A stretch of DNA of 32,993 bases from a virus (taxonomy: Duplodnaviria; Caudoviricetes). Both the position numbers and the translations under genes were made by a program. Of this stretch, positions 3,977-32,993 are shown in pieces. The notes beneath the pieces were generated by a model, which saw only the letters and a list, made by a program, of their open reading frames with translations, made no database searches and was not told the origin of the DNA. The DNA is taken from the IMG/VR virus record IMGVR_UViG_3300050162_000106, positions 1-32,993 of that record; one strand, 5' to 3'. Every line of letters starts with the position of its first letter. Position 1 is the stretch's first letter.

Positions 3977-4410
3977 AGCTGCCCCCTCACCGCGTTGTGG
4001 GCGGCCGGGGCGGGACAATCCACCACCGGCGCCGGAGCGGCCCGGAGAGCCGCGATAGCGCGCGCCCGGCTGGCCGCGTCCCGGGCGGCCTGAGCTTTCG
4101 CCTCGGCCGCGCGCTGGGCCGCCGCGTCACTGGCTTTTTTGAACCCGTCCACGGCCTTGTTTTGCGCCCCGATCTGGGCCCGGAGCGTGCCAATCGTGGC
4201 TAGATCTGCCGTATGCGCTGCGCTCCAGCCCTTGGCGTCCTCGGCCGCCTGAGCCAGCCGTTTGTCCCGGGCGCCCAGCTCGTGGCCCTGCCAGAAAATG
4301 ACGATCGCGCACACGAGGAGCGCGAAGACATACCACGGGAGCGAGCGGAGCCATTCCAGCGCCGTCTTGCCCCAGCCGAGGAGCTTAGCCGCAAGCCAAA
4401 TTTCACCCAT
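3973..4410 (-). CDS. Rz: i-spanin (Rz-like inner-membrane protein)
   Basis: One N-terminal TM helix (YVFALLVCAIVIFW), then an Ala-rich coiled coil with a C-terminal Cys; sits between holin and lipoprotein. Confidence 0.8.
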   Translation of the reverse strand: MGEIWLAAKLLGWGKTALEWLRSLPWYVFALLVCAIVIFWQGHELGARDKRLAQAAEDAKGWSAAHTADLATIGTLRAQIGAQNKAVDGFKKASDAAAQRAAEAKAQAARDAASRARAIAALRAAPAPVVDCPAPAAHNAVRGQL

Positions 4411-4696
4411 TGGACGAGCCTCCCGGTGCGGTGGTGGGTTCCGTGCCGCGCTTCATGTAGAGCGCGCCAGCGCCCGCCACAAGGAGCCCGGAGATACCCC
4501 CGGCCCACACTACCCAATCTTGCGCGCTCCAGAGCGGCAACGTGGTGGCGTCACGCCAGAGCGCGAGGATAGACCCAGCCACCTGAGCAAACCCCACGCC
4601 GATGGGCGCAAGCGCGGCCAACACCCACAAAACGCGACCAAGGTCGTAGGTAGAACCGTCTAATCCGGTGAAACAGTCGCGAAAGAACTTTCTCAT
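4403..4696 (-). CDS. putative holin (2 TM)
   Basis: 97 aa with two hydrophobic segments and a basic/polar tail; ATGA overlap with the endolysin stop. Confidence 0.65.
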   Translation of the reverse strand: MRKFFRDCFTGLDGSTYDLGRVLWVLAALAPIGVGFAQVAGSILALWRDATTLPLWSAQDWVVWAGGISGLLVAGAGALYMKRGTEPTTAPGGSSNG

Positions 4697-5298
4697 TGGA
4701 TTACCCCCAAGAGCTCAAAGAATTTCATGCGGTCCGCCAAACCGTTATAACCGCCGTTAATGAGGAGCGTTGCCCGGCGCGTGTCGGCTGCGTCCGCCGC
4801 CGCGTTGATGTCCCGGGCGGTCCAGTAGCGGCAAGCCGCCTCCACGGCCGTCTCCGGCTCCTCCAAGAGCTCCGGGTGGTTCACGCAATCCACGCCAGTG
4901 GCTTTCGCCAAGGCGGTGTAATTCGCGCGGCCGGTGGTCTGGAGCAAGCCCCGGCCCTTGAAGCGCGGGCCGTCCCCGGCTTGCGTGTTGCCAAGGTCCC
5001 GGCGCCCCTCATACCGCTGAAAATAGGAAAGGCCCCCATATTCCACCAACGTGGCAAAATGATCCGTTTCGCAACAGGCTTGGGCGAGGAACTGGCGCAC
5101 GCGCAAAGCGGTGTCTATGCCATGCTCCGGGAGCTTGTCCGCCAGCACCGTGGCCAGCGTGGGGATGAGGAGCGCGGAGCGCCCGGCCGCGCGGCGCATG
5201 GCCGCCGCCAGCGTCTTGGGCCCCAGCTTCCCGTCCATCACCAAGCCAGCATTGGCCACGGTGTTGAGGGCCTTTTGCGTCATGGTGGCGTCAAACAT
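4693..5298 (-). CDS. endolysin, glycoside hydrolase family 19 (chitinase-like lysozyme) with short N-terminal PG-binding-like segment
   Basis: FLAQACCET, YEGRRDLGNTQAGDGPRFKGRGLLQTTGRANY and INGGYNGLADR are GH19 endolysin motifs; DGKLGPKT resembles PG_binding_1. Start moved to ATG 5298 (AAGGA RBS). Confidence 0.9.
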   Translation of the reverse strand: MFDATMTQKALNTVANAGLVMDGKLGPKTLAAAMRRAAGRSALLIPTLATVLADKLPEHGIDTALRVRQFLAQACCETDHFATLVEYGGLSYFQRYEGRRDLGNTQAGDGPRFKGRGLLQTTGRANYTALAKATGVDCVNHPELLEEPETAVEAACRYWTARDINAAADAADTRRATLLINGGYNGLADRMKFFELLGVIQ

Positions 5299-21807: not shown

Positions 21808-23298
21808 TCAAGCAGCGCGGACCATCACAGCCGAACCGTTACGGTAAAAGTCGCCAACCAACAAGCCGCCCGCCGCTGCCGCCGCATCATTGGCATAGCT
21901 GCGCACATTCCCAATCGGGATGTTAAGCGCTCCGTTGCCTTGCGGGGTAAGCTGAATGCCGACGTTGGCATCACTTCCGTATGCCGCGAACTGCACCTTA
22001 TTGCCAGTGGCAGAAGGCACGACGCCGGGATAGTTTACGCTGGACGTTCCAATGTTCTCAATGCGGAAAATCCACTTACCGCTAGTGAAGTTGCTGACGG
22101 TAACGCGGTCGTCGGAAAGGTTAAGAGTGGCTCCCTTGTCCGCCGTGGTCGCGGTGCCATAAATTGCCGAAACTTGGTGGCTAGCGGCATACCAAAGCTG
22201 CCCATGGCCCTTTGCAAAACTGATCGCTTCGGCAGTCCCAGTAACACCGTCCGAACCAGCAAGCGAGTTGCTTCCGAAAACAAGACCGCGCTTAAACTTT
22301 GCGCCGTTATCGCGAACGTTGATCGCAAAGCTAACGTCGAAAACACCGCTTATCGACTCCCCGCCGCTTGCGATCTGGATCGCCCCAATCTGATTACCTG
22401 CTTGAGAATAGGGCTGCGTTACGGGAGTTGTGGCGTTAACGTAATTGATTGCGTCAAATTCAGATGCGTAAGTAGGGCCAACAGCAGAGCTATCTCTTTG
22501 GCCTTCAAAATAGCCGCCCCAAGCGCCGGTTCCCAGCGTTGAGTTATTGTTTAGGCCGATGCTCAAAATGCCAATCGCGTTTCTGGCATCGGTGTAGTTT
22601 TTCGTTTGCGCACCAACAACAACCGCATTGCTGGAGTATGGGGCGTCGTCGTTCAAAATACCGACTTGCGCGCCCTGCAAGAACCCAAATGAGTGGCCCT
22701 TAGATAGCTGGAATACTGTAAGCCAATCAGGTTGCGAACCCGCATCAGTGCCGAGATTTTTAGTCGCGCCAGCAATAAAAACGCGGTCGTTAAAGCGCTG
22801 AATTTTGGCACCGTCATCCGCATAGAAAAAGCCGGTGCTTATCTGACTAGCCACTTCCAGCGCTGTTTCCAACGCTTGCATGCCCGCTTTGGCGCTCACG
22901 TTATCGGGAATGGTATACCCCGAAAATGTCCCCATGTTATTTGCGGTAGGGGCCACGCCAAGCGCCGCAGCGTTAGCTTTTCCGATCCCCGTAGACCCCT
23001 GAATTTCCGCAATGTCGGAGGCCAAAAAGGTAAAGCTCACCAGAACCCCCGCCGGGAAGTCTACGGGAGCGCCTCCATTCGTGCTGCTTGAAACAGTTCG
23101 GGATAGAGACCGGGTTGCAGACGTAAAGGTCCCCACGCCGACCTCTACACGAGAGTCTTGCTGGACTGAGTAGGAATAGCTCGCCCCGTCCGTAAGCCGC
23201 TCAGCTCCAAAAAATCCCGTCGCGGCTTCCCCCAATACAAAAGCCCCCGTGCCTGAGGAGCTGGCCACGATGCACACGCAATCCACGAAACTGTTCAT
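21808..23298 (-). CDS. fibre/spike-like protein (496 aa)
   Basis: N-terminal ~95 aa (D.V.....GTG...LG.A.TGF...EVG.GT....LSR.V.SS.NGG..VDF.AG) resemble a common phage fibre anchor domain; the rest is G/S/A/N-rich beta structure. Confidence 0.6.
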   Translation of the reverse strand: MNSFVDCVCIVASSSGTGAFVLGEAATGFFGAERLTDGASYSYSVQQDSRVEVGVGTFTSATRSLSRTVSSSTNGGAPVDFPAGVLVSFTFLASDIAEIQGSTGIGKANAAALGVAPTANNMGTFSGYTIPDNVSAKAGMQALETALEVASQISTGFFYADDGAKIQRFNDRVFIAGATKNLGTDAGSQPDWLTVFQLSKGHSFGFLQGAQVGILNDDAPYSSNAVVVGAQTKNYTDARNAIGILSIGLNNNSTLGTGAWGGYFEGQRDSSAVGPTYASEFDAINYVNATTPVTQPYSQAGNQIGAIQIASGGESISGVFDVSFAINVRDNGAKFKRGLVFGSNSLAGSDGVTGTAEAISFAKGHGQLWYAASHQVSAIYGTATTADKGATLNLSDDRVTVSNFTSGKWIFRIENIGTSSVNYPGVVPSATGNKVQFAAYGSDANVGIQLTPQGNGALNIPIGNVRSYANDAAAAAGGLLVGDFYRNGSAVMVRAA

Positions 23299-23312
23299 CC
23301 CATTTAATCCTT

Positions 23313-26096
23313 TTATTTCTCGTAACAGCCGATAGCTCCGGTCCCATCCTGCCTGCGCGCTACCCCGTCAAGGTCAAAGCGCAGAGGCTGGGTTATGGCC
23401 ATACCGATCATGGTAGAACCGTTGGCAAGGTGGTAGTCGCCGTTTCCAGTGCCGCCACCAGTGCCCATGTTGGTTTTGTCGTTCACAAACTGCGCGCTGA
23501 CATTGCTAGAGTTGAACACGTTATAGAGGCTGTTTACGCCGAAACGCAGGCCTGCATAGCCTTGCGGTCCAAGCAAGCCGCTCCCTTGCGAGCCTAACAG
23601 CGACATATTACGCGCCGTACCCACCCAATAAGCGCCAGAATAAACCTGACAGCGATTGCCGCTACGGACAGGGGTTGCGTGCGAATTGCTATCCCAAATC
23701 ACATTGACTGTTGTATAGATATTGTTCGCACGATACCAGCTACGTGAAAGAGGCGTATTTGGGTCGTCATTGTATGGGCCGTTGCAGCGGTCGCCAACAT
23801 AGGTGTTTCCCGCCTCGACAAAGTAGGTCAGGCCGATGTTGCCGCCGTCTGCCGCGATTTCATAGCACTTGTCCGAACCGCCACCTACGGCGCTTTCAAT
23901 CAAGTTGTTGAGCATGGCGGCCCCAACACTCGGTATTCCGGTGTCCGCCGTGGTGCCGACGGCATTCAGGATGAGCAGCTTGCCGCCAGTTGTCCCCGTC
24001 ACGCCGCGAATTTCATTGTTAGCTACAATGATGGACTTTGGCAGAATGATGCCGGACGAAGTGCCGCGCCCGTTTCTCACCATATTCGCGCCGGTCATCT
24101 TGTTTCCAATGATGTTTGACGCATGGATTTCAAGCGTTCCGGCGCAACGATTGCCCGCCATCAAAGCGGGCTGCGCACGTGCGTTTTGGTTTCCGGTAGT
24201 GAACACCGTGGAGATCACATTGTTGACGTACCAGACAGCGCCCACGCGATTGATCACCTCGGGCGCGGTGCCGCCGGTTACGCCGGTAATCGTGCCGTTA
24301 GCCACAACATAGCTGGAAGTGATCAAGCCAAATGTGGTTGCGCCATCCGTAGCTGGATCAAGGATGATGTTGCCGTTACCGCTGCTAGTGGCGGTCAGGT
24401 TCACCCCGTCAAGATAGGCCATTTTAGGGCCGGTTTTGGTTGCGCCCGTGGTAATGGATGCAGTTGGCGTGGTAGGATCCGGTTTAATGTAGCAATACAG
24501 AGATCCAGACGCCAGCGCCGCAGCAGACGTTCCAATGCCACCATGCGCGCCGGTCAGCCACATTGTGCCGCCTGCCAGATTATTATGCGTGGTCAATCCT
24601 CCGCCTGCGGTGTTGTGATAAGTCACAAGAGCCGCCGCAGCCAGACCGATAGAGCCGTAGCTGTTTCCAGCATCAAAAGCCGTTTTGGAAGCAGCATAGG
24701 TGGCATAGACAGCGGGCGTACCTGCATTGGTGCCGGTGGCGTTGACGTGAGCGTGGCCGCGCTTAAACAGGCTGGCAGGATCATTGTAGAAGTGCCAGCG
24801 GGCCGGGGTGTCGCGAGTTGTCAGCAAGGGCGTAGTGGCAGCCGCAACATAGGTCCATACAACCGCGCCATCGGTGGTAGTTGTCGTGCCGGTAGGGCCG
24901 CCAGAGGATGCGCTGGTGCCTGCCGTGGTGCAGAGGTAGACGTTGCCGCCATTGACCACCACTTGATGCAGCATATAGGCCGTGCTGGCAGTCCAAGGCG
25001 CTCCATAGCCGTTCACCCGCGAGCGCCATACTGGGCCAATCCACGGGTAGAACTCGAATTCGATAAACCCGTCACCGGCAGCCAACCCCGAGGCGTCATT
25101 GCTGGTACGGTAGCATTCCACACCTCGCCCTGCTGGGCTGCTGGTTGTGATCCGGTTAGACAGAACGGAAGCTGTGCAGGTGGACCAGCCGGAAAGCGCG
25201 TTGTAACTAGCGTCGATTAGGCGGCTGCGCATCATAGCAATTTGCTGGCCATAGCCGATGAATGTAGCGATGCCCTGCGCAGGCACAAACTCCAACTCAA
25301 TCGTTGAGGTAGCAGAGCCTTGGATAACCTGATGCGGTGGCGTCAAGAGCGCCATCATCACCGGCTCCACCTGTAGTCCGCTGCTGTTTGTAATGCGGTC
25401 CAGCGGAATGCTGAACATCGCATTGTTGGACGTGCCGTTCGGCTGGTAGCAGCCGGAGCCAATGGAGGCGGACAGGATTTCAGTGGTCGCGTAAATAGGC
25501 GAGTCCAGAGCCACGCGCACGCGCACGTCACTGCCCGACACGTATTCCTGAAAGCCGGTATAGCTGCTGAAATCCAAGCAGACCCATGTAACCGTGCCGT
25601 CGGTAATGCTTTCGCCTACCGTGGGGGTTGTGCCGCTCGTCATCTTGGTCGGGCGTGTCGCGCCGGTAATGCCACCGCCAATGGTGTACCAAGAATAGTT
25701 GTTGGTGCCGGAAATGAACGAATTTGGCGCGACGGTGGTTAGCGCCGTCCAGTCAACCGGCCATACTTCCTTGATCGCCACGGTGCCCTTGACGGTGCGC
25801 GTTCGCCATACCTGTGTGCCGGTGGCGTCATAACCAAGGTCGCGCACATTAAACGTCAGGCTACTGAAATCAGGGATGGGATCACCGCCAGCGGAGACCG
25901 GATACATCTTACGCCGAGACATCCCTTTGAACGTGACCTCGGCACCAAATGCGGTGAGGTCAGGGGAGCCGCTGGGGTTGAGTGTGGAGACGGCCCCGTT
26001 GATGACGTTGATGGACAGAACATCACCAACGACGGGGCCAGCGGTACCACCAAGCGCCGCGATATTGGACGCGCCAGCCAGTAATCGCCACAGCAT
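23313..26096 (-). CDS. large carbohydrate-binding / parallel beta-helix protein (927 aa), candidate depolymerase or adhesin
   Basis: TAATG coupling at 26096. Two CBM5/12-like Trp repeats (WTALTT...TDGTVTW; WTASTAY...TDGAVVW). Asn-ladder region (VNN, AGN, IGN, ANN, LNN). C-terminal GDYHL...DLDG..R......IGCYE motif typical of beta-helix proteins. Confidence 0.65.
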   Translation of the reverse strand: MLWRLLAGASNIAALGGTAGPVVGDVLSINVINGAVSTLNPSGSPDLTAFGAEVTFKGMSRRKMYPVSAGGDPIPDFSSLTFNVRDLGYDATGTQVWRTRTVKGTVAIKEVWPVDWTALTTVAPNSFISGTNNYSWYTIGGGITGATRPTKMTSGTTPTVGESITDGTVTWVCLDFSSYTGFQEYVSGSDVRVRVALDSPIYATTEILSASIGSGCYQPNGTSNNAMFSIPLDRITNSSGLQVEPVMMALLTPPHQVIQGSATSTIELEFVPAQGIATFIGYGQQIAMMRSRLIDASYNALSGWSTCTASVLSNRITTSSPAGRGVECYRTSNDASGLAAGDGFIEFEFYPWIGPVWRSRVNGYGAPWTASTAYMLHQVVVNGGNVYLCTTAGTSASSGGPTGTTTTTDGAVVWTYVAAATTPLLTTRDTPARWHFYNDPASLFKRGHAHVNATGTNAGTPAVYATYAASKTAFDAGNSYGSIGLAAAALVTYHNTAGGGLTTHNNLAGGTMWLTGAHGGIGTSAAALASGSLYCYIKPDPTTPTASITTGATKTGPKMAYLDGVNLTATSSGNGNIILDPATDGATTFGLITSSYVVANGTITGVTGGTAPEVINRVGAVWYVNNVISTVFTTGNQNARAQPALMAGNRCAGTLEIHASNIIGNKMTGANMVRNGRGTSSGIILPKSIIVANNEIRGVTGTTGGKLLILNAVGTTADTGIPSVGAAMLNNLIESAVGGGSDKCYEIAADGGNIGLTYFVEAGNTYVGDRCNGPYNDDPNTPLSRSWYRANNIYTTVNVIWDSNSHATPVRSGNRCQVYSGAYWVGTARNMSLLGSQGSGLLGPQGYAGLRFGVNSLYNVFNSSNVSAQFVNDKTNMGTGGGTGNGDYHLANGSTMIGMAITQPLRFDLDGVARRQDGTGAIGCYEK

Positions 26097-26998
26097 TATG
26101 CGAAGCTCCCCACCCCGATCACCGTAACGTTTGCGCCCGTTGTGACCTTCCATGCGCCCGAAACCGACTTGGCGCCCAGAGGGACAAAAAACGGGACGAG
26201 GCTCGTGACGGAACTAGCGCCACCAGCAAACAGCGTAATCGCCGTCCCGCTTCCATCCTGAACCGACACTGCCCCCGGAGACGTGCTGAGCGGAGTAATT
26301 AGCAACCCCGTCAAAACATCACCAACCGCGCCCGTGGCGCCAAGAACCTGCGAGGTCGAAGAAGCTGCTACCGCTTCGTAGGCCGTTCCCGAAATAGCCG
26401 CCAGCGCCGCATTGGCCACGTCTTGCTTGGCCGCAGTCGACGCTCCGGCGGGGAGAGGCAGAGACGCCGCGCTTACCGCCTGCGTGGCCGGGAAATTCGA
26501 TACCGCTACCGATCCGCCCGCCTGCAAGGGCGAAACCGCCGAACCGTCCGCCGCAACAAGCATCGTGGCCAGTTGACCATTAAGACCAAACCATGCGTTT
26601 TGCCGCTGCCCTGAGGATACCGCCGTGGGCGCATTTGCATTTGCCTGCCCGCCGATTTTGATAGGGGCGTTAAGGTCCGTCATGCCCACACCACGGTCCC
26701 CGCTTACGGGGCCAGACGTGCGCAATGCCCCAACGCTATCGACGGTAAGGTAGACCACCTGCCCGTCAGACGGGACCATACCCGCTGCTTTGTATACGCC
26801 GCCAATCTGCACCGGATTGCCAGAAGCCGTTGTCAAATTGGCCGAATACCCTTGAATATTCGACGAACCGCCTCCGCCGCCGCCGCCGCCGCTGGTGGGC
26901 AAAGGGTTGGCGGCGGTTACCGGCTGAGGGTCGTCGTTCGCATCACGAAACCACACCTCTGCCATGGGATACCCCGGGACAAGACGGCCTCCAGTCAT
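26096..26998 (-). CDS. putative virion appendage/adaptor protein (300 aa)
   Basis: GAGGGAG RBS before ATG 26998; PVTAANPLP plus poly-Gly linker; C-terminal beta-sandwich-like region. Confidence 0.6.
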   Translation of the reverse strand: MTGGRLVPGYPMAEVWFRDANDDPQPVTAANPLPTSGGGGGGGGSSNIQGYSANLTTASGNPVQIGGVYKAAGMVPSDGQVVYLTVDSVGALRTSGPVSGDRGVGMTDLNAPIKIGGQANANAPTAVSSGQRQNAWFGLNGQLATMLVAADGSAVSPLQAGGSVAVSNFPATQAVSAASLPLPAGASTAAKQDVANAALAAISGTAYEAVAASSTSQVLGATGAVGDVLTGLLITPLSTSPGAVSVQDGSGTAITLFAGGASSVTSLVPFFVPLGAKSVSGAWKVTTGANVTVIGVGSFA

Positions 26999-27027
26999 AA
27001 AACACTCCCTCGATGAAATTCCCCACG

Positions 27028-27056
27028 ACTGTAACGCTTCGCCAGATACACGTCCA
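27028..27056 (-). promoter_or_regulatory. candidate sigma70-type promoter for the inserted cassette
   Basis: Minus strand TGGACG-17 nt-TACAGT in the short gap before the 26998 RBS. Confidence 0.35.
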
Positions 27057-27917
27057 TTAATTTTCAAGGTCCGCAAGGCTAGGCAGAACCAGCCGAGACA
27101 CGCAACGGCAATTCGGCTCCACACCCGGGTGCGTCCATTTTCCCTCAAGGTGGGCGCCTTTAGCCAGCGAATAGCGCTTGCCGGAAAATGCCACGTGCTC
27201 CGGTCGGGGCTTCTTGCCGCCAGCCGAGTGGAGCCATTCGCCCTCTGTGCACCCGAGGTCCAAGCCCCGTTGGCGCGCGAGCGTGGCCGTGGTCTTGTTG
27301 GTCTGATCACGGGCGATGAATGCCGCCCGGCGCCGCGTCACGCCCAACGTGTCCTCCAGTTCGTTGGTGAGCTGGTGGAGGTCTTGGCCCTGTTGAATGG
27401 ACCGCATGACGGCGCCATCCACATTGGTGAGGTGGCGGTCCGCTATGTCTGAAATGAGGTTCACTTGCTCCGAAATAGTGGCTTGCACCACGGCGCGCAT
27501 TTGCCGCGTCATCCGAAATTCAATGCTCACCCCATTGTCTTTGAGGATTTGCTCCATGGCTTGGTCCACGTGGCGTTGCCCGCGCCGGGCAATCTCCTTG
27601 CTGAGCTCCTCGGCCATCTTGCGGAATTTGCCGCGCCAGAGCCGCCCACGCTTGCGGAGGAGGTCCCGGAGCTCGCGTTCTGGGCTAGCGTCATTGGCCA
27701 CGGTGGTGGGCGTATCGCGGTGCCACTGAGCCTTGAGCCAATAGACGATAGACGCTTGCATGGCGTCCACCTCGCGCTCCAGCCGCTCCGTGTAATACGC
27801 GCGGAGAGCGGCCGAGGGACGAACCCCCGGCACGGCCTTGCCCGGCTGGTAAACCTTCGCCCGGGGCGTCTCCGGCTCGCGCGGCCGTGTCCGGGCCTTG
27901 ACCGGGGGGCGGCTCAT
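27057..27917 (-). CDS. minor head protein (Mu F / SPP1 gp7-like)
   Basis: RA.FIARDQTNK, W.HS.GGK.PR.EH, PG.EPNCRC; ATGA overlap with the portal stop. Confidence 0.9.
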   Translation of the reverse strand: MSRPPVKARTRPREPETPRAKVYQPGKAVPGVRPSAALRAYYTERLEREVDAMQASIVYWLKAQWHRDTPTTVANDASPERELRDLLRKRGRLWRGKFRKMAEELSKEIARRGQRHVDQAMEQILKDNGVSIEFRMTRQMRAVVQATISEQVNLISDIADRHLTNVDGAVMRSIQQGQDLHQLTNELEDTLGVTRRRAAFIARDQTNKTTATLARQRGLDLGCTEGEWLHSAGGKKPRPEHVAFSGKRYSLAKGAHLEGKWTHPGVEPNCRCVSRLVLPSLADLEN

Positions 27918-29449
27918 TCCTCTTGCGCCTCCTCGCCGTCCTCGTAATCCTCGGGCGGCTCCGGCGTCTTGAGCTTCACGCCAAAGTAGATGCCACCCTC
28001 CTCGCTAACGAGGCGCTCGCGCACGTCCTCGGGGTCCAGCACCCCGGCTTGGATATAGCCCACCTCTGCGGCTTGGTTCGTCTGGCGCACGCGGGCCTCG
28101 GCCTCCTCGTCCAGCTCCCAAAGGTCCACAAACTCAAACGTAATGCCCTCGTCCACGGTCCCGTCCATGTTGAGCTGGAGGACGCGCAACAGGGTGGTGA
28201 GCGGCGCTTGGAGGGTCTTTTCCTGATATCCATGGACGTGGCCGTAGAACGCCTTGATTTCCCCCTCGCTGGAGGCGTTCAACCCGCTGGCGCCATCGCC
28301 AATATAATTCACCTTGGCGATGCCCACCATGGAGCAAATCATTTCCTGCGATTGCGCGAGGAGGTCTTTTACGCCGGACAGGGGCGCGGACACGTTCTTG
28401 AGGTCCTCCGTGTCCTTGTTCACCAGCATAAGGCCGCCGCTGTCCCGGCCAAAAATAAAAGACTTGATCCGGTTCACCAGCTCGCCCGCGCCCTCCGGCG
28501 TGAGCATGACGGACAGGTCCGTGGACAAGACCATGGTGGAGAAGGAATAGAGGAGGTTGGCCACGCTGGTGCGGTTGCGGATGAAGTAATCCACATACGG
28601 CTTAGCCATTTGCGTGAGGGACAGGCCCCCAAACATATACACCGGCTTGAGCATATCCGGAACCTCGCGGCCCACGAACGTGAGCATCCGCGTTGTGTGC
28701 ACGGCGGTGCCCATGACGAGCCATTGCGAGGGTGCATAGAAATCGTCCGCGAGCGGCCGGGTGCTGTTGAAGTTGAGCGGATAGCTCCAATACGCCTCCA
28801 CCACCTTGAGGTTCCTCAAGGTGCCCTTGGTGATGGTGGCCTCATCGTGCTTGAGCGGGTTTGCCAGCTCCGCGTCCGTGTCCTCACCCAAGTCCATGAA
28901 AATGTGGGCGCGGCCCATGGAGCCGTCCAGCTCGATAGCCTCGCGGAATTTCTCGCGCACGCCAAAGCGGCGCATTTCCCCCTCAAGCGCCGCAATGCGC
29001 TCGTGGCTGTCGCCCTTGAGCTTGATCCACTTGCGCGTGCATTCGGCCGCCCAAATCTCGCAAATCCGGCGGTATTCGGGGCGTTGCTGGAGCTCCGCCA
29101 AGTAGGCGTAGCCCATGAAACCGAGGCCCTCGCTCCACGCGCTGGAATTGGCCGCATAGTCCGCCATTTCAGCATATGGCAGACTGTCCATGGCGAGCGT
29201 GCGGGCGTCCTCCGGCTGGCCCTCCAACCAACGGTCCAACCACGCTGGCTTGGTGGGTGCGCGCCAAGTCTCGGGAGCCGATAGCCCGGCCGCCAGCCGA
29301 TAGCCAAGGTCCGCCACGGCCGCCGGTGAGAAGAAGGAGCCGCGCGAGGTCTTAGCCACGGGGTCGGGGAGCTGGGGCGCCGCCGCGTCCATGGCCAGCC
29401 ACCGGCGCAAGTGTCGCTTAGCGGCGCGTTTGAAGTTGGCGAAGGCCAT
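27914..29449 (-). CDS. portal protein (DUF1073-like)
   Basis: FMGY.YLAEL.QRPEYR, A.ECTRKWI, LKP.Y.FGGLSL.Q, SAPLSG..DL.AQSQE, GLNASSEGEI..FY; follows terL. Confidence 0.92.
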   Translation of the reverse strand: MAFANFKRAAKRHLRRWLAMDAAAPQLPDPVAKTSRGSFFSPAAVADLGYRLAAGLSAPETWRAPTKPAWLDRWLEGQPEDARTLAMDSLPYAEMADYAANSSAWSEGLGFMGYAYLAELQQRPEYRRICEIWAAECTRKWIKLKGDSHERIAALEGEMRRFGVREKFREAIELDGSMGRAHIFMDLGEDTDAELANPLKHDEATITKGTLRNLKVVEAYWSYPLNFNSTRPLADDFYAPSQWLVMGTAVHTTRMLTFVGREVPDMLKPVYMFGGLSLTQMAKPYVDYFIRNRTSVANLLYSFSTMVLSTDLSVMLTPEGAGELVNRIKSFIFGRDSGGLMLVNKDTEDLKNVSAPLSGVKDLLAQSQEMICSMVGIAKVNYIGDGASGLNASSEGEIKAFYGHVHGYQEKTLQAPLTTLLRVLQLNMDGTVDEGITFEFVDLWELDEEAEARVRQTNQAAEVGYIQAGVLDPEDVRERLVSEEGGIYFGVKLKTPEPPEDYEDGEEAQEE

Positions 29450-31805
29450 AGCGCAAATCCTTTAGGGCTTCATTGCTCACAACGAGCGGACGGTTAAGGG
29501 CTACCATAGAGAACGCCCGGGAAAAAGCGTCCACTTGGTCGTCAAAGGTTCCGCTGGGGAAAGCGGCCAGCTCCTCCCTAAACGGATGGTTCCACGTGGC
29601 GCGCACCATGCCCACGTTTCCGATGTTGACTTGGGCGGCCGCCGGTGCCGCGCGCGTGGCCTTGTCGCCCGTCTCCGGGGTGCTCACAACCTTGTATCCC
29701 GCCAGCTTCTTGGTGAACGTTGCCACCTGAGACTTGCCCGCTTGGCCCGGGTCTTGTGGCAAGCCCACGGTGCAATGGCGGCCGTCTTGCTTCGCGGTGT
29801 TGATGATGCCCGCCTCCACGTCCTCGGGGCCGCCACGAAAGCGCACCACGTCCAAGACCACATAGCGGTCCTCGCGCGTCCGCATCATCTTGACGCCCAC
29901 CGTCCAGTCCGGGTTCGCGGTGCCCATTTTCTTGGTGGCCGCAAGGTCCCACGCCCGGACGATATGGGGCGTCTTGCCGGGCTCAGTCTCCAGCACCTCC
30001 AGACTGTGGACCTTGAAAACGGTCCCCTCGCCCGCCGTGGGCTTGCCTTGGTAAAGCGCGTTCCAATCGCGCATGGCCCCGGCCGCCTCATACTCGGCCT
30101 TGATGAGCTGGAGCGCCTTGGCATAGCCATATTCATCATCGCCCCAGAGCCATTCACCCGGCTGGCGGCCGAGCGGGTCCGGCTCATCCCCGGTGGCTTG
30201 GGCGGGGATGTTGAGGACGCGCCACTGGCCCGGCTGGCGCTCTATCAAGCGGCCACCAAGGTCGTCTTGATGCCATCTCGTGTTGGATACGCAGAGGCCG
30301 TCTGCGATGAAGTTATGCACATTTTCGACCTCAATATCAAAAACCTCCTCCCGACCGGCGGGTTCAATGCTCGTGATGATGTCGAAGGTAGGCTGCGGCT
30401 CGTTCCAAGATTTCAGCGGTGTTCGGCTCCCCGATCGTGACATTGCAGGCATTGCAAAGGAGGCCGCGAACTTTGCCGCTCGCATGATCGTGATCCACGC
30501 ATAGGCGCCGCGTTCGGCCATACCGACGCAAATCATCCGGCCCCGCACCACAAATCGCACAAAGCCCATTTTGACGCTCGTGAAGAGCCGTGTATTCGCT
30601 CGCGGATAGCCCATAGCGATGTTTGACGTGCCTCTGGCGGATGGCCTCCGAATTGCATGACGGGGGGCGATACCCGCTGGCCCATCGCTCACGTCCATAA
30701 TGGACGTTGCACAAACCTCGGCACTTCGCGGGGGCGTCACAATCTTCAGCCGCGCAAACTTTGCCGCGATACTGGCCATGGTGCCCCATAGGGTGCGCCC
30801 GAACGCGCTCTGGGTCGTGCTTGTAGCAGGTGCCCCCTTTGCGCTGGGCTCGCGTGGTGCACCCTTCGACTGAGCACGGACTATCCGGTCGCCTACGACC
30901 AGTTCCCGGACCTTTACCCACTCTAAAACCCCTTCGCGCTCGACAAGAAACGGGTGCCTCTCGTTTGCCCGAACGGAGCTACCATAGATTGTCTTGATTT
31001 CATAGACATGATCTATGCCTTGGCTGCACCAATTTAGCACACGGTTACAGACGAAATCCCGGCGCTCTCGGTCGTAACTCAATACCATGTCGCCCGGGCG
31101 CACGTCGCGAAGAGGTTTCTCTGCGCCGTCCGCCATCCGCACGGGGGTGTCCCCCGTCATGCACATAATGACAATGATCCACGCCCCGGGCTTCAGGCGC
31201 GTGCGGAGGTCCACGAGGAACCAGTTCCATAACTTCTCGCGCATGGTCTCGCTCTCGGCCGCCTCGCGTGACTTCACCGGGTCGTCAATGAGCACCCCGT
31301 CCGCACGGTTGCCCGCGATGGCTACGCCCACACCAGCCGCACGATAGCGGCCGCGCTTGTCCGTGGTCCAGAGCGGAGCGGACCGCTTGCGGAGCTTGAA
31401 GGGCACGAGGTCCGGACGCTGGTCCACGAGCGCCAACGTGCGCTCTGAGAAGTCCTCGGCCAGCGTGGAGGTATTGGACGCGCCAATGAGGTTAAACGCG
31501 GGCTGGCGGCTCAAGAGGTGCGCCGGGAGGAGCTCGCTCGTATAGGTGGACTTCGCGGAGCCCGGCGGGGCGTTGATGAGGAGGCGGGGCGGACCGCGCC
31601 CGCTAATCGTCTCCTCCACGGCTTGCACAATGACGCGGTGGTGCTTGGCGGGCTTCCAACCCCTGTCCCGGCCCACCTCCTCGCACCAGCTCGCATAGTC
31701 CGCGCGGGCGCCCTTGAGGCTAAGCTCCCGGGCGTTGCGAAACGTGCGCTCTTGCTCCTCGGGGCTCTGGCGAGCCACCCACGCCACCAACTCCTCGTCC
31801 GTCAC
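29418..31805 (-). CDS. terL: terminase large subunit, intein-containing precursor (795 aa; 501 aa after splicing)
   Basis: Walker A APPGSAKST, Walker B VLIDDP, IVIM|TRWH motif split by the intein, nuclease AWDLA and DDQVDA. Confidence 0.95.
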   Translation of the reverse strand: MTDEELVAWVARQSPEEQERTFRNARELSLKGARADYASWCEEVGRDRGWKPAKHHRVIVQAVEETISGRGPPRLLINAPPGSAKSTYTSELLPAHLLSRQPAFNLIGASNTSTLAEDFSERTLALVDQRPDLVPFKLRKRSAPLWTTDKRGRYRAAGVGVAIAGNRADGVLIDDPVKSREAAESETMREKLWNWFLVDLRTRLKPGAWIIVIMCMTGDTPVRMADGAEKPLRDVRPGDMVLSYDRERRDFVCNRVLNWCSQGIDHVYEIKTIYGSSVRANERHPFLVEREGVLEWVKVRELVVGDRIVRAQSKGAPREPSAKGAPATSTTQSAFGRTLWGTMASIAAKFARLKIVTPPRSAEVCATSIMDVSDGPAGIAPRHAIRRPSARGTSNIAMGYPRANTRLFTSVKMGFVRFVVRGRMICVGMAERGAYAWITIMRAAKFAASFAMPAMSRSGSRTPLKSWNEPQPTFDIITSIEPAGREEVFDIEVENVHNFIADGLCVSNTRWHQDDLGGRLIERQPGQWRVLNIPAQATGDEPDPLGRQPGEWLWGDDEYGYAKALQLIKAEYEAAGAMRDWNALYQGKPTAGEGTVFKVHSLEVLETEPGKTPHIVRAWDLAATKKMGTANPDWTVGVKMMRTREDRYVVLDVVRFRGGPEDVEAGIINTAKQDGRHCTVGLPQDPGQAGKSQVATFTKKLAGYKVVSTPETGDKATRAAPAAAQVNIGNVGMVRATWNHPFREELAAFPSGTFDDQVDAFSRAFSMVALNRPLVVSNEALKDLRYGLRQLQTRR
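30282..31163 (-). mobile_element. intein (294 aa) in TerL, inserted between IVIM and TRWH
   Basis: Block A CMTGDTPVRMADG (Cys1 codon 31163-31161); block B VRANERHPF; WVKVRELVVGDRI; block F EVFDIEVENVHNFIADG; C-terminal ...VSN then +1 Thr. Confidence 0.95.
30364..30921 (-). CDS. zinc-finger / Endonuclease VII-family HNH homing endonuclease nested out of frame inside the intein
   Basis: GTG start with GAAGGGG 7 nt upstream. Two C-x4-C...C-x2-H repeats, then the Endo VII domain YGLS..EY......Q.G.CAIC...LCVDHDH.SGKVRGLLC..CN..IG. Frame is -1 relative to TerL. Confidence 0.9.
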   Translation of the reverse strand: MGKGPGTGRRRPDSPCSVEGCTTRAQRKGGTCYKHDPERVRAHPMGHHGQYRGKVCAAEDCDAPAKCRGLCNVHYGRERWASGYRPPSCNSEAIRQRHVKHRYGLSASEYTALHERQNGLCAICGAGPDDLRRYGRTRRLCVDHDHASGKVRGLLCNACNVTIGEPNTAEILERAAAYLRHHHEH

Positions 31806-32278
31806 TCCTTCACCTCGTGAAATTCCGCGTCCACGGGAGCGGGGAGCTCCAACCGGCTGGCCACGGTAAGGCTCGCGCGAATGGCGGCCGCAATCTCCGC
31901 CGGGGTGCGTTTCGTCTCATCCTCGGGCGGGGGCGCCACGGCCCGGTCCAGAGCCGCTTGAGAGAAGCGACGGGGGCAGATGAGCGCGGCCACCTTGAGG
32001 TTGGTATCCACAATCACGCGCTTGGTTTTCGGGTCCAGCGTGGCGTCCCGTGCCACCTCCGGGCATTCAAGGACGAGGGCCTCCGCGTAAAGCTCCTGCG
32101 CGCGCGCGAACTGGTCGGCCATTTCTGGATCCGCCGCGCGCCAATCGTGCCACGTGGTCCTCCCGATGCCTACGGCCGCCAGCACCGGGCCGAGGTGCCG
32201 CCCTTCGCTCACGAGCTTGCAAATGGTTGCGCCAATTGCTTTTTTCGTCTCGTCATCAAAGGGTGATACCCCGGCCAT
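31802..32278 (-). CDS. terS: terminase small subunit
   Basis: N-terminal HTH-like IC..VSEG..L......GIGRTTW.DW......F.RA; GTGA overlap with the terL start. Confidence 0.85.
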   Translation of the reverse strand: MAGVSPFDDETKKAIGATICKLVSEGRHLGPVLAAVGIGRTTWHDWRAADPEMADQFARAQELYAEALVLECPEVARDATLDPKTKRVIVDTNLKVAALICPRRFSQAALDRAVAPPPEDETKRTPAEIAAAIRASLTVASRLELPAPVDAEFHEVKE

Positions 32279-32317
32279 ATGGTTCTCTCGGTCGTTTAGG
32301 GCACCCGTAGCGGGTCG

Positions 32318-32776
32318 CTACGGCATGAGCGCCCTAACCATAGTAACCAATCGGTCATCGTCTGGGAAGGCGTCTTTAGGCAAAGCCCCCGTTTCTTTCA
32401 GCACCCCGAGGATAAGGGACCGAAACTCCTCCAGCGCGTCAAACTTCTGGAGGAGCTTCTGGAGGTCCGCCAGCCCGGCCGAGTCCATGAACAGCTCCAC
32501 GGTCTGGTGCTGGTCGTGGAGCTCGCGCACGCCGGTGAGGAGCTGGAGCGCTTTCTCCACTTGGTCCACGTCATTGTGCTCTATGTCGTCCACATCATGG
32601 AGCTCGTGGAGCCGGTGCGTTATAACGAGGTCGTTAAGCGCGTCCAGCTCGTTGGAGCTATCCTCCGCCTCGTTCACGAGCTCGTCAAAATCCCGTATCA
32701 AATCCGTGTCCGCCTCTGGCCACACCCGATAGCGGTCCAACCATTCTTTTAACCGTGTCGTCATTTTATACACCAT
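32318..32776 (-). CDS. hypothetical acidic helical protein (152 aa)
   Basis: GGAGG RBS before ATG 32776; first gene downstream of the candidate promoter. Confidence 0.7.
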   Translation of the reverse strand: MVYKMTTRLKEWLDRYRVWPEADTDLIRDFDELVNEAEDSSNELDALNDLVITHRLHELHDVDDIEHNDVDQVEKALQLLTGVRELHDQHQTVELFMDSAGLADLQKLLQKFDALEEFRSLILGVLKETGALPKDAFPDDDRLVTMVRALMP

Positions 32777-32802
32777 ATCGTCCTCCGTGGTCTAGGCTGG
32801 CC

Positions 32803-32831
32803 ACAATACGCGCTCGCCCCGCCCCGGGCAA
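32803..32831 (-). promoter_or_regulatory. candidate sigma70-type promoter driving the minus-strand region
   Basis: Minus strand TTGCCC-17 nt-TATTGT, about 27 nt upstream of the 32776 start. Confidence 0.45.
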
Positions 32832-32993
32832 GGCCCATAATCTGGGCGTCTCGCTACGTGGGGGGCTCGCCACTATGAACGCGGCGTGCAATAGCGTTTC
32901 TCCTAATGATCTTTTGATTAGGTTAGCGATTTTCAGTAACCCCCCATAGGACCAACATTCTGGAATACACCCCCCCCCCCATATGTGTTGCAT

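Follow-up and report, generated by a model that had tools for sequence, protein, structure and literature searches.

A Terminase Intein of a Contractile-Tailed Phage with an Endonuclease VII-like Gene in Its Third Reading Frame

Introduction

An intein that carries an endonuclease VII (Endo VII)-like homing endonuclease in frame 3 was described by Gosselin, Arsenault and Gogarten (bioRxiv 10.1101/2025.01.02.630785). The main text of that preprint terms the arrangement previously unreported, names the phages Angelicage, Affeca, Keitabear, and Sedona, and leaves open whether the nested open reading frame (ORF) is expressed and drives homing. Here, an intein in the gene for the terminase large subunit (TerL) of the virus record IMGVR_UViG_3300050162_000106 (IMG/VR; Duplodnaviria, Caudoviricetes) is compared with these elements. 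The whole stretch analyzed, 32,993 nucleotides, is designated as the window.

Three other systems are relevant. Inteins at the site TerL6-f were reported from mycobacteriophage clusters B3 and B4 (Kelley et al. 2016, PMC5050341). In the passages of that paper that concern them, the intein of Chandler gp6 spliced in a reporter assay, and endonuclease activity was assayed for TerL1-b and TerL1-c only (PMC5050341). F-CphI, of the DHHRN homing endonuclease family, is described as evidence that this catalytic motif can act in homing (Fang et al. 2018, PMC6083498). Within a phage methylase, the ShiLan domain is described as carrying a gene of the HNH type out of frame (Arsenault et al. 2025, PMC11855218).

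Results

The terL Intein and the Gene inside It

29418-31805, minus strand: terL, precursor of the terminase large subunit, 795 amino acids, with matches to Terminase_6N and Terminase_6C
30282-31163, minus strand: intein of 294 amino acids, Cys1 to Asn294 with Thr at +1, inserted at M|TRW
30879-31163, minus strand: N-terminal splicing region, about codons 1-95 (C1, R69-H70-P71-F72, W82), from invariant alignment columns
30282-30362, minus strand: C-terminal splicing region, codons 268-294 (D276, F285, N294), from conservation and the ratio of nonsynonymous to synonymous substitution rates (dN/dS)
30364-30921, minus strand: nested nuclease ORF, 185 amino acids, 558 nucleotides, GTG start, frame 3 of the intein at an offset of 242 nucleotides
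30382-30633, minus strand: Endo VII/DHHRN catalytic domain (PF02945, residues 97-180), from alignment with T4 Endo VII and conservation in 128 relatives
30697-30876, minus strand: two Cys/His zinc-finger-like repeats, residues 16-35 and about 56-75 (Zf_WRKY19)
30364-30366, minus strand: stop codon (TGA) of the nested gene, within codons I266-E267, read from the sequence

The original prediction described a TerL frame open through an intein with complete splicing blocks, and this was confirmed: terL is one uninterrupted frame of 795 amino acids, composed of a 214-residue N-extein, the 294-residue intein, and a 287-residue C-extein, and the intein frame matches Pfam Intein_splicing (E = 2.4e-13). 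The 294 extra residues, in frame and stop-free, are absent from most of the nearest homologs. Class 1 inteins are recognized by Cys1, the block B His, the block F Asp, the terminal Asn, and a Cys, Ser, or Thr at +1. The window intein shows these sequence features of a standard class 1 intein; its C-terminus CVSN is followed by Thr, and C1, H70, D276, N294, and the +1 Thr do not vary across 76 aligned sequences. The penultimate residue is Ser, not His, as in 12 of 128 relatives. The insertion site lies in the ATPase coupling motif and corresponds to TerL6-f, a name taken from PMC5050341 through the match to the Chandler intein.

The Pfam search with the intein frame gave Hint-type families only, and the middle of the intein matched zero nuclease families. 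With no nuclease domain in the intein polypeptide, the element is not a canonical intein with an in-frame LAGLIDADG or HNH nuclease. Split inteins with an intervening nuclease gene were reportedly described by Dassa in 2009, and the window intein is not of this kind, since its host frame is a single ORF of 795 amino acids.

The same DNA read in the shifted frame encodes the 185-residue nuclease that the original prediction had placed there. This ORF matches Pfam Endonuclease_7 (E = 2.2e-20) and four PHROG endonuclease VII families, and hidden Markov model (HMM) searches thereby assign a nuclease to the nested frame and a splicing domain to the intein frame. The catalytic and zinc-binding residues of the nuclease are C121, C124, D143, H144, H146, R152, C156, C159, and N160. 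When it is aligned with the T4 Endo VII structure 1e7d, counterparts are present for D40, H41, H43, R54, N62, and all four zinc Cys, residues whose roles are given in PMC6083498. Thus, the five residues of the DHHRN motif and two CX2C zinc pairs are all found in the nested ORF, and the D, the first H, the R, the N, and the four Cys occur in 128 of 128 relatives. The earlier label was a zinc-finger/Endo VII HNH nuclease; in place of classical HNH, the nuclease is better classed as Endo VII/DHHRN. The repeats match Zf_WRKY19 in two stretches (E = 2.5e-05, below the curated cut-off), and counting by pattern gave one repeat in 62 relatives, two in 65, and three in 1. It is likely that they bind DNA. 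A single-sequence structure model of the nuclease had a pLDDT score of 38 and was not used, so the analysis includes no fold evidence.

Both ends of the nested ORF overprint intein codons as had been stated: the GTG (30921-30919) covers E81-W82 and the TGA (30366-30364) covers I266-E267. In relatives, the nested stop is located 21-33 codons ahead of the intein end. The expectation that standard annotation misses this gene also held, as it is unannotated in 6 of 6 GenBank records.

The original prediction had named indel errors as a possible source of the layout. The comparison used contigs rather than raw reads, at depth 2-5, from three further samples (X2-X4); sample X1 may itself be the source. 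These contigs show 0 differences and 0 gaps against the window across both ends of the nested ORF, and leave only positions 30990-31015 of the intein uncovered. Two compensating indels that mask an in-frame nuclease are ruled out by these contigs together with the frame-3 layout in relatives: in 185 of 186 intein loci, curated isolate phages included, the host frame is open and frame 3 encodes the nuclease. An assembly artefact is practically negligible as an explanation.

Related Inteins

The intein is matched by 596 of 2943 candidate proteins, those listed sharing the x|TRW site, and 426 of 599 scanned viral stretches encode a relative. From the confirmed relatives, the best 80 of 426 on viral, 79 of 329 on genome, and 80 of 472 on metagenome contigs were taken. 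In total 245 loci were fetched; about 60 from genome contigs were other inteins and were removed by the family HMM cut-off, and L211 and L240 are without the C-terminal intein end. Both intein ends are present in 186 loci (earlier loci and the window included), 185 of which have an open host frame, as expected from the proposal that the intein frame is kept stop-free. Dereplication at 95% identity left 131 inteins. A strict Endo VII pattern was found in frame 3 in 124 of them, in frame 1 in one (L096), and on the opposite strand in none. The six inteins without the pattern are four full-length variants, L014 with a premature stop, and L097, a 148-residue mini-intein. Isolate contigs with intact nested ORFs include those of Oribacterium, Bradyrhizobium, Mycolicibacterium, and Kistimonas. 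A plasmid search gave three distant partial matches only. Relatives searches gave no close viral contig with the whole TerL as query, and a single distant match with the intein of P0266 (described below) as query.

Several variants were observed. In the mini-intein L097 (L097:4001-4444) the nested start codon survives, together with 35 codons left over from the N-terminus of the nuclease; this form is a decay stage of the intein cycle. P0039 is a mini-intein version of 141 residues. At L096:4001-4823, a frameshift sets the Endo VII domain in the starting frame of the intein, and an early stop is also present in the host frame; this is likely a decayed prophage or a sequencing error and not a working in-frame form. 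In the subgroup of L014, L031, and L037, Tyr replaces the second catalytic His (DHCY), and the nuclease frame of L014 is prematurely stopped. L098 and L099 (both 4001-4801) carry the same element, within 95%, in Oribacterium and Dysosmobacter isolate contigs.

Conservation in the Overlap

The dN/dS over the nested core was calculated from 22 non-overlapping pairs with 72-95% nucleotide identity. In the nuclease frame all 22 pairs fell below 1, with a median of 0.12; in the host frame the median was 1.75, and 2 of the 22 pairs fell below 1. At the splicing ends the host frame gave 0.15 (codons 1-72) and 0.04 (codons 268-294). Differences peak at the third codon position of the nuclease (0.415, versus 0.147 and 0.099). 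In the middle of the intein only the nuclease frame is under amino-acid selection, and the host-frame dN/dS above 1 is a consequence of the overlap, not positive selection. The per-frame comparison among homologs proposed earlier thus revealed purifying selection in the nuclease frame. The claim that all 558 nucleotides are dual-coding holds in that both frames are open, and fails for the middle if coding is taken as amino-acid selection on both.

Stops in the host frame number 0 against 188 expected from synonymous shuffles, in a search that favored open frames, and 1532 against 1507 expected in the unused frame. For the window alone an open host frame is unremarkable, being obtained in 28.5% of its synonymous shuffles.

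Start Site and Upstream Region

30919-30921, minus strand: GTG start, the last base of the E81 codon and TG of the invariant Trp82 codon, from family conservation
30929-30934, minus strand: Shine-Dalgarno (SD)-like AAGGGG in the E77-G78-V79 codons, from anti-SD duplex energy

The original prediction gave the nested gene its own SD and GTG, and both are supported by the family. The start is placed on the Trp codon in 130 of 130 in-frame relatives (ATG in 107, GTG in 23). Where the preceding residue permits a pyrimidine, a purine is kept in 36 of 36 cases against 18.5 expected from the extein codon use of each locus. Of 121 relatives, 75 use GGA for Gly78, four codons upstream, against 16 expected, and this choice generates a GGAG-type SD. 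The anti-SD duplex energy has a family median of -7.1, versus -2.8 for 384 control out-of-frame starts; in the window it is -7.4 for the nested start and -7.2 for terL. As a control for Trp starts only five unrelated inteins were found, three with GTG and two with CTG. The P0266 intein, at the same site and with LAGLIDADG-like motifs in frame (by eye), has the same Trp motif, and therefore the invariant Trp is probably older than the nuclease. From this pattern of selection it is likely that ribosomes start at the GTG on the Trp82 codon, aided by the SD in the Gly78 codon.

Another way to produce the nuclease is a programmed -1 frameshift, by which it would be fused to the N-extein and the N-terminal part of the intein. 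Frame 3 is indeed reached by a -1 shift, and in the window 19 codons of it upstream of the GTG are free of stops. In 68 of 128 loci, however, it is open upstream for just 0-6 codons, an X XXY YYZ heptamer is found near the start in only 9 of 128, and the start codon in 130 of 130 relatives with its SD bias points to separate initiation. The frameshift was rejected for want of a conserved slippery site and is considered very improbable.

30945-31028, minus strand: extra synonymous constraint over intein codons 46-73, the homologous position of a sigma70-like promoter, from the family
30999-31004, minus strand: candidate -35, degenerate in the window
30976-30981, minus strand: candidate -10, degenerate in the window

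Constraint on synonymous choice averages 0.27 in codons 45-80, compared with 0.03 in codons 1-44 and 0.06 in codons 268-294. A sigma70 score exceeds the synonymous null in 119 of 128 loci, and in 70 of 128 over the control codons 4-41. With a base-matched null, the sense strand exceeds in 112 of 128 and the antisense strand in 41 of 128, while four shuffled motifs gave 58, 86, 44, and 70. The best -10 position is 60 nucleotides (56 loci) or 70 nucleotides (37 loci) upstream of the nested start, and the commonest hexamers at the first position are TAAAAT (24), TATAAT (11), and TAGAAT (10). RNA structure as the cause of the constraint was ruled out, since alignment folding upstream of the nested start gave 0 pairs and 0 covarying complementary columns. 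A search for an I-TevI-like operator, a copy of the homing site over the promoter, gave no excess similarity (above the null in 64 of 128 loci sense and 67 of 128 antisense).

The balance of these signals tips slightly towards transcription of the nuclease, in many family members, from a promoter within the N-terminal coding region of the intein. The copy in the window may rely on terL mRNA. The earlier statement that two polypeptides are made from one mRNA is probably too simple, as a signal resembling a promoter is retained in relatives, upstream of where the nested gene starts.

Occurrence among Terminases and Homing

The 119 nearest TerLs were ranked by their C-exteins. The first 21 have no intein, and the top one is 93% identical in both exteins. 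The site is empty in 116 of the 119 and occupied by an intein in three. Natural empty alleles are present in four viral contigs (L248-L251), in which 33-34 of 42 nucleotides about the insertion point are identical. These data bear on whether the window gene could be an intact-looking silent relic. The weak promoter match of this copy and its long terminal branch are compatible with a relic. Against it, the catalytic and zinc residues, start, SD, and stop are all intact despite at most 49% identity to any relative, and the 93% identical TerL without the intein suggests a recent gain. We regard a relic as very unlikely.

Among 117 loci with long flanks, a nuclease identity of 70% or more coincides with a terminase identity of 45% or less in 20 pairs. 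Trees were built from a subset of 42 rows, 22 chosen and 20 random. Seven such elements, of similar nucleases and divergent terminases, group as a clade in the tree of the nucleases (support 99.8), and the same seven loci are rejected as a clade in the extein tree by the approximately unbiased (AU) test (p = 0.003). The AU test with the AlanGrant and phi1 nucleases gave no rejection (p = 0.64). The conflict between element and terminase trees and the intein-free nearest TerL (93%) fit homing; homing, raised earlier as a possibility, is the likely role and agrees with the patchy distribution and this conflict.

The nuclease could instead be kept for a phage function other than homing, with the intein as its shelter: exclusion of competitors by terL cutting, resolution of branched DNA in packaging, or damage to host DNA. 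The best solved relative, T4 Endo VII, is a resolvase, and purifying selection alone cannot separate homing from a benefit to the phage; cutting the essential terL of a competitor would also be a by-product of homing. On the other side, 116 of the 119 nearest TerLs are without the element, so it is dispensable in this TerL clade. There are also decayed copies (L014, L097), and the element tree conflicts with that of the terminase. The C-terminal catalytic domain with N-terminal fingers is as in F-CphI and unlike the resolvase. A function other than homing is improbable.

Further observations concern the same and neighboring sites. The Gordonia phages Angelicage (L002:1147-1941) and Fosterous (L004:1147-1947) have identical terminase flanks, with 47% identity between their nucleases and 70% between the splicing ends; this difference represents separate invasions or replacement at one site. 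In P0266, a TerL with 66% identity over the C-extein, the same site is occupied by a related intein of 344 residues with in-frame LAGLIDADG-like motifs (by eye); between it and the window family, two nuclease types compete for one site. In the related TerLs P0276 and P0354 the intein sits elsewhere, shortly ahead of the Walker B region, and the intein middles also look like shadow translation.

The window is a single 33-kb contig of a contractile-tailed phage. This assignment is based on the genes around terL, which lies in the packaging module with terS, head, sheath, and baseplate genes as neighbors. Three large ORFs (404, 946, and 496 amino acids) lie at 21811-27310 on the minus strand, between the genes for head morphogenesis and the protease. 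Neither Pfam nor PHROG matches them clearly, with one weak virion-protein match; they are possibly head decoration proteins.

Discussion

It is highly probable, judged from sequence, that the intein splices from TerL with a junk loop in place, and that a separately initiated DHHRN nuclease cuts empty terL and drives homing. Both frames are open, and the catalytic residues for splicing and for the nuclease are intact. From this anatomy and the family-level selection, we infer the translation of the nuclease, the splicing of this copy, the cleavage, and the homing. By analogy with Chandler, the tested relative, the 795-residue precursor likely splices into a 501-residue TerL and a 294-residue intein. 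The Chandler intein is a homolog of that in the window, and a frame-3 nested nuclease was found in it by translation; it carries the nested gene and spliced, and therefore a member of this family splices with the junk loop in place.

In the proposed mechanism, the intein would be excised from TerL with the junk translation of its middle stretch hanging as a loop, and the nuclease would be made as a separate protein from the GTG that overlaps Trp82. At the family level, an intein-internal promoter would free the nuclease from the late timing of terL. With its zinc fingers and DHHRN domain, the nuclease would cleave the DNA of a co-infecting phage or a prophage close to the empty site, after which repair would copy the whole intein into the cut, intein-free terL. 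As for the origin, a free-standing Endo VII gene may have entered a mini-intein out of frame once, after which start signals would have become fixed on intein codons.

Several points weigh against this interpretation. The penultimate His is absent from the window intein. The closest nuclease relative is only 49% identical, and selection was measured across the family, not on the branch of the window. Ranking of loci by tblastn to the open frame biased the sample toward open host frames. The seven-row group was picked after its low extein identity had been seen, not blind. The nuclease and splicing-domain trees also conflict, in 23 of 42 splits, from short alignments or nuclease swapping. For the promoter, the match in the window is equaled by 41% of its own shuffles and is not significant, a plain consensus promoter scan of 30200-32993 found none, and only 31 of 128 loci are individually within their top 5%. 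One of the four shuffled-motif controls likewise exceeded its null, and the loci are related, so that pooled p-values overstate.

A wider proposal, for which we see an even chance, is that the element is a full transcription and translation unit inside an intein, belonging to one old, still-mobile lineage at TerL6-f in phages of several bacterial phyla, with metagenomic copies in the hundreds. The unit as proposed would consist of a promoter in codons 46-73, the SD at Gly78, the start at Trp82, and a stop just before the C-terminal splicing block. If so, homing would not be tied in time to the late expression of terL, and inteins may exchange their nuclease cassettes. An architecture once taken as a rare actinophage oddity is common, with 596 matching proteins and 426 of 599 viral stretches. 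Intein surveys may miscall such inteins as degenerate when the nested gene is unannotated. The fixed start, SD, and promoter-like signals make the question of expression and homing directly testable, and Chandler is an isolated phage with a proven splicing intein. The element also offers a clear natural example of gene overlap where one of the frames has only to remain without stops.

Comparison with Described Systems

The high interest that the original prediction gave to the nested-nuclease intein could not be maintained, because the main text of Gosselin 2025 describes the same architecture in the same intein family. The original prediction had also mentioned out-of-frame intein nucleases in a few phages, and that preprint describes frame-3 Endo VII inteins. 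The four phages that rank highest in tblastn (34% over the whole intein) are Angelicage, Affeca, Keitabear, and Sedona, and the cluster-47 inteins named there match at full length with E = 5e-33 to 1e-30. The window nuclease is 46% identical to that of Angelicage. Angelicage, AlanGrant, Fosterous, phi1_186018, and Phlyer have the same frame-3 gene, unannotated, at the same terL site. The features that define the class in the main text are found in the window: a same-strand frame-3 Endo VII-like ORF in the homing endonuclease (HEN) region, no nuclease in the intein frame, and homology. Frame, nuclease type, intein family, and terL site are all shared with that class as described. Because these features are present and the intein is homologous to named members, it is a new example of a known architecture. 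In contrast to the phages described there, the window is from a contractile-tailed phage in leaf-litter metagenomes, its terminase is distant (27% over the flanks), and its nuclease has two zinc fingers rather than one.

Compared with the TerL6-f inteins of Kelley 2016, the insertion site is the same, and the passages of PMC5050341 on these inteins do not mention a nested gene. F-CphI, as described, resembles the window nuclease in having its Endo VII motif, made up of CX2C, DHDH, R, CX2C, and N, at the C-terminus. It was characterized as the product of its own gene, whereas the window gene shares its DNA with an intein and encodes zinc-finger repeats at the N-terminus. The ShiLan domain is similar in that an insertion without stops in the host frame conceals, in a different frame, a nuclease with a GTG start. 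As its description goes, it differs in having no splicing domain, a nuclease of the HNH type, no detectable ribosome-binding site (RBS), and a non-essential host gene. RNA-spliced insertions with a nuclease likewise have it translated apart from the host gene, from an RBS and promoter inside the element; in the accounts considered, the insert is removed by RNA splicing, so there is no overlap constraint. RBS-sequestering hairpins and operators are described from such insertions, while the window family gave no sign of either.

The main text of Gosselin 2025 makes no mention of the start codon, ribosomes, synonymous sites, or Chandler, its supplements lying outside this comparison, and the evidence on the start, the SD, and dN/dS apparently goes beyond it. 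The architecture was thus already known, and what is added here is its breadth beyond actinophages, the selection data, the start fixed on a Trp codon, and the family-level promoter signal.

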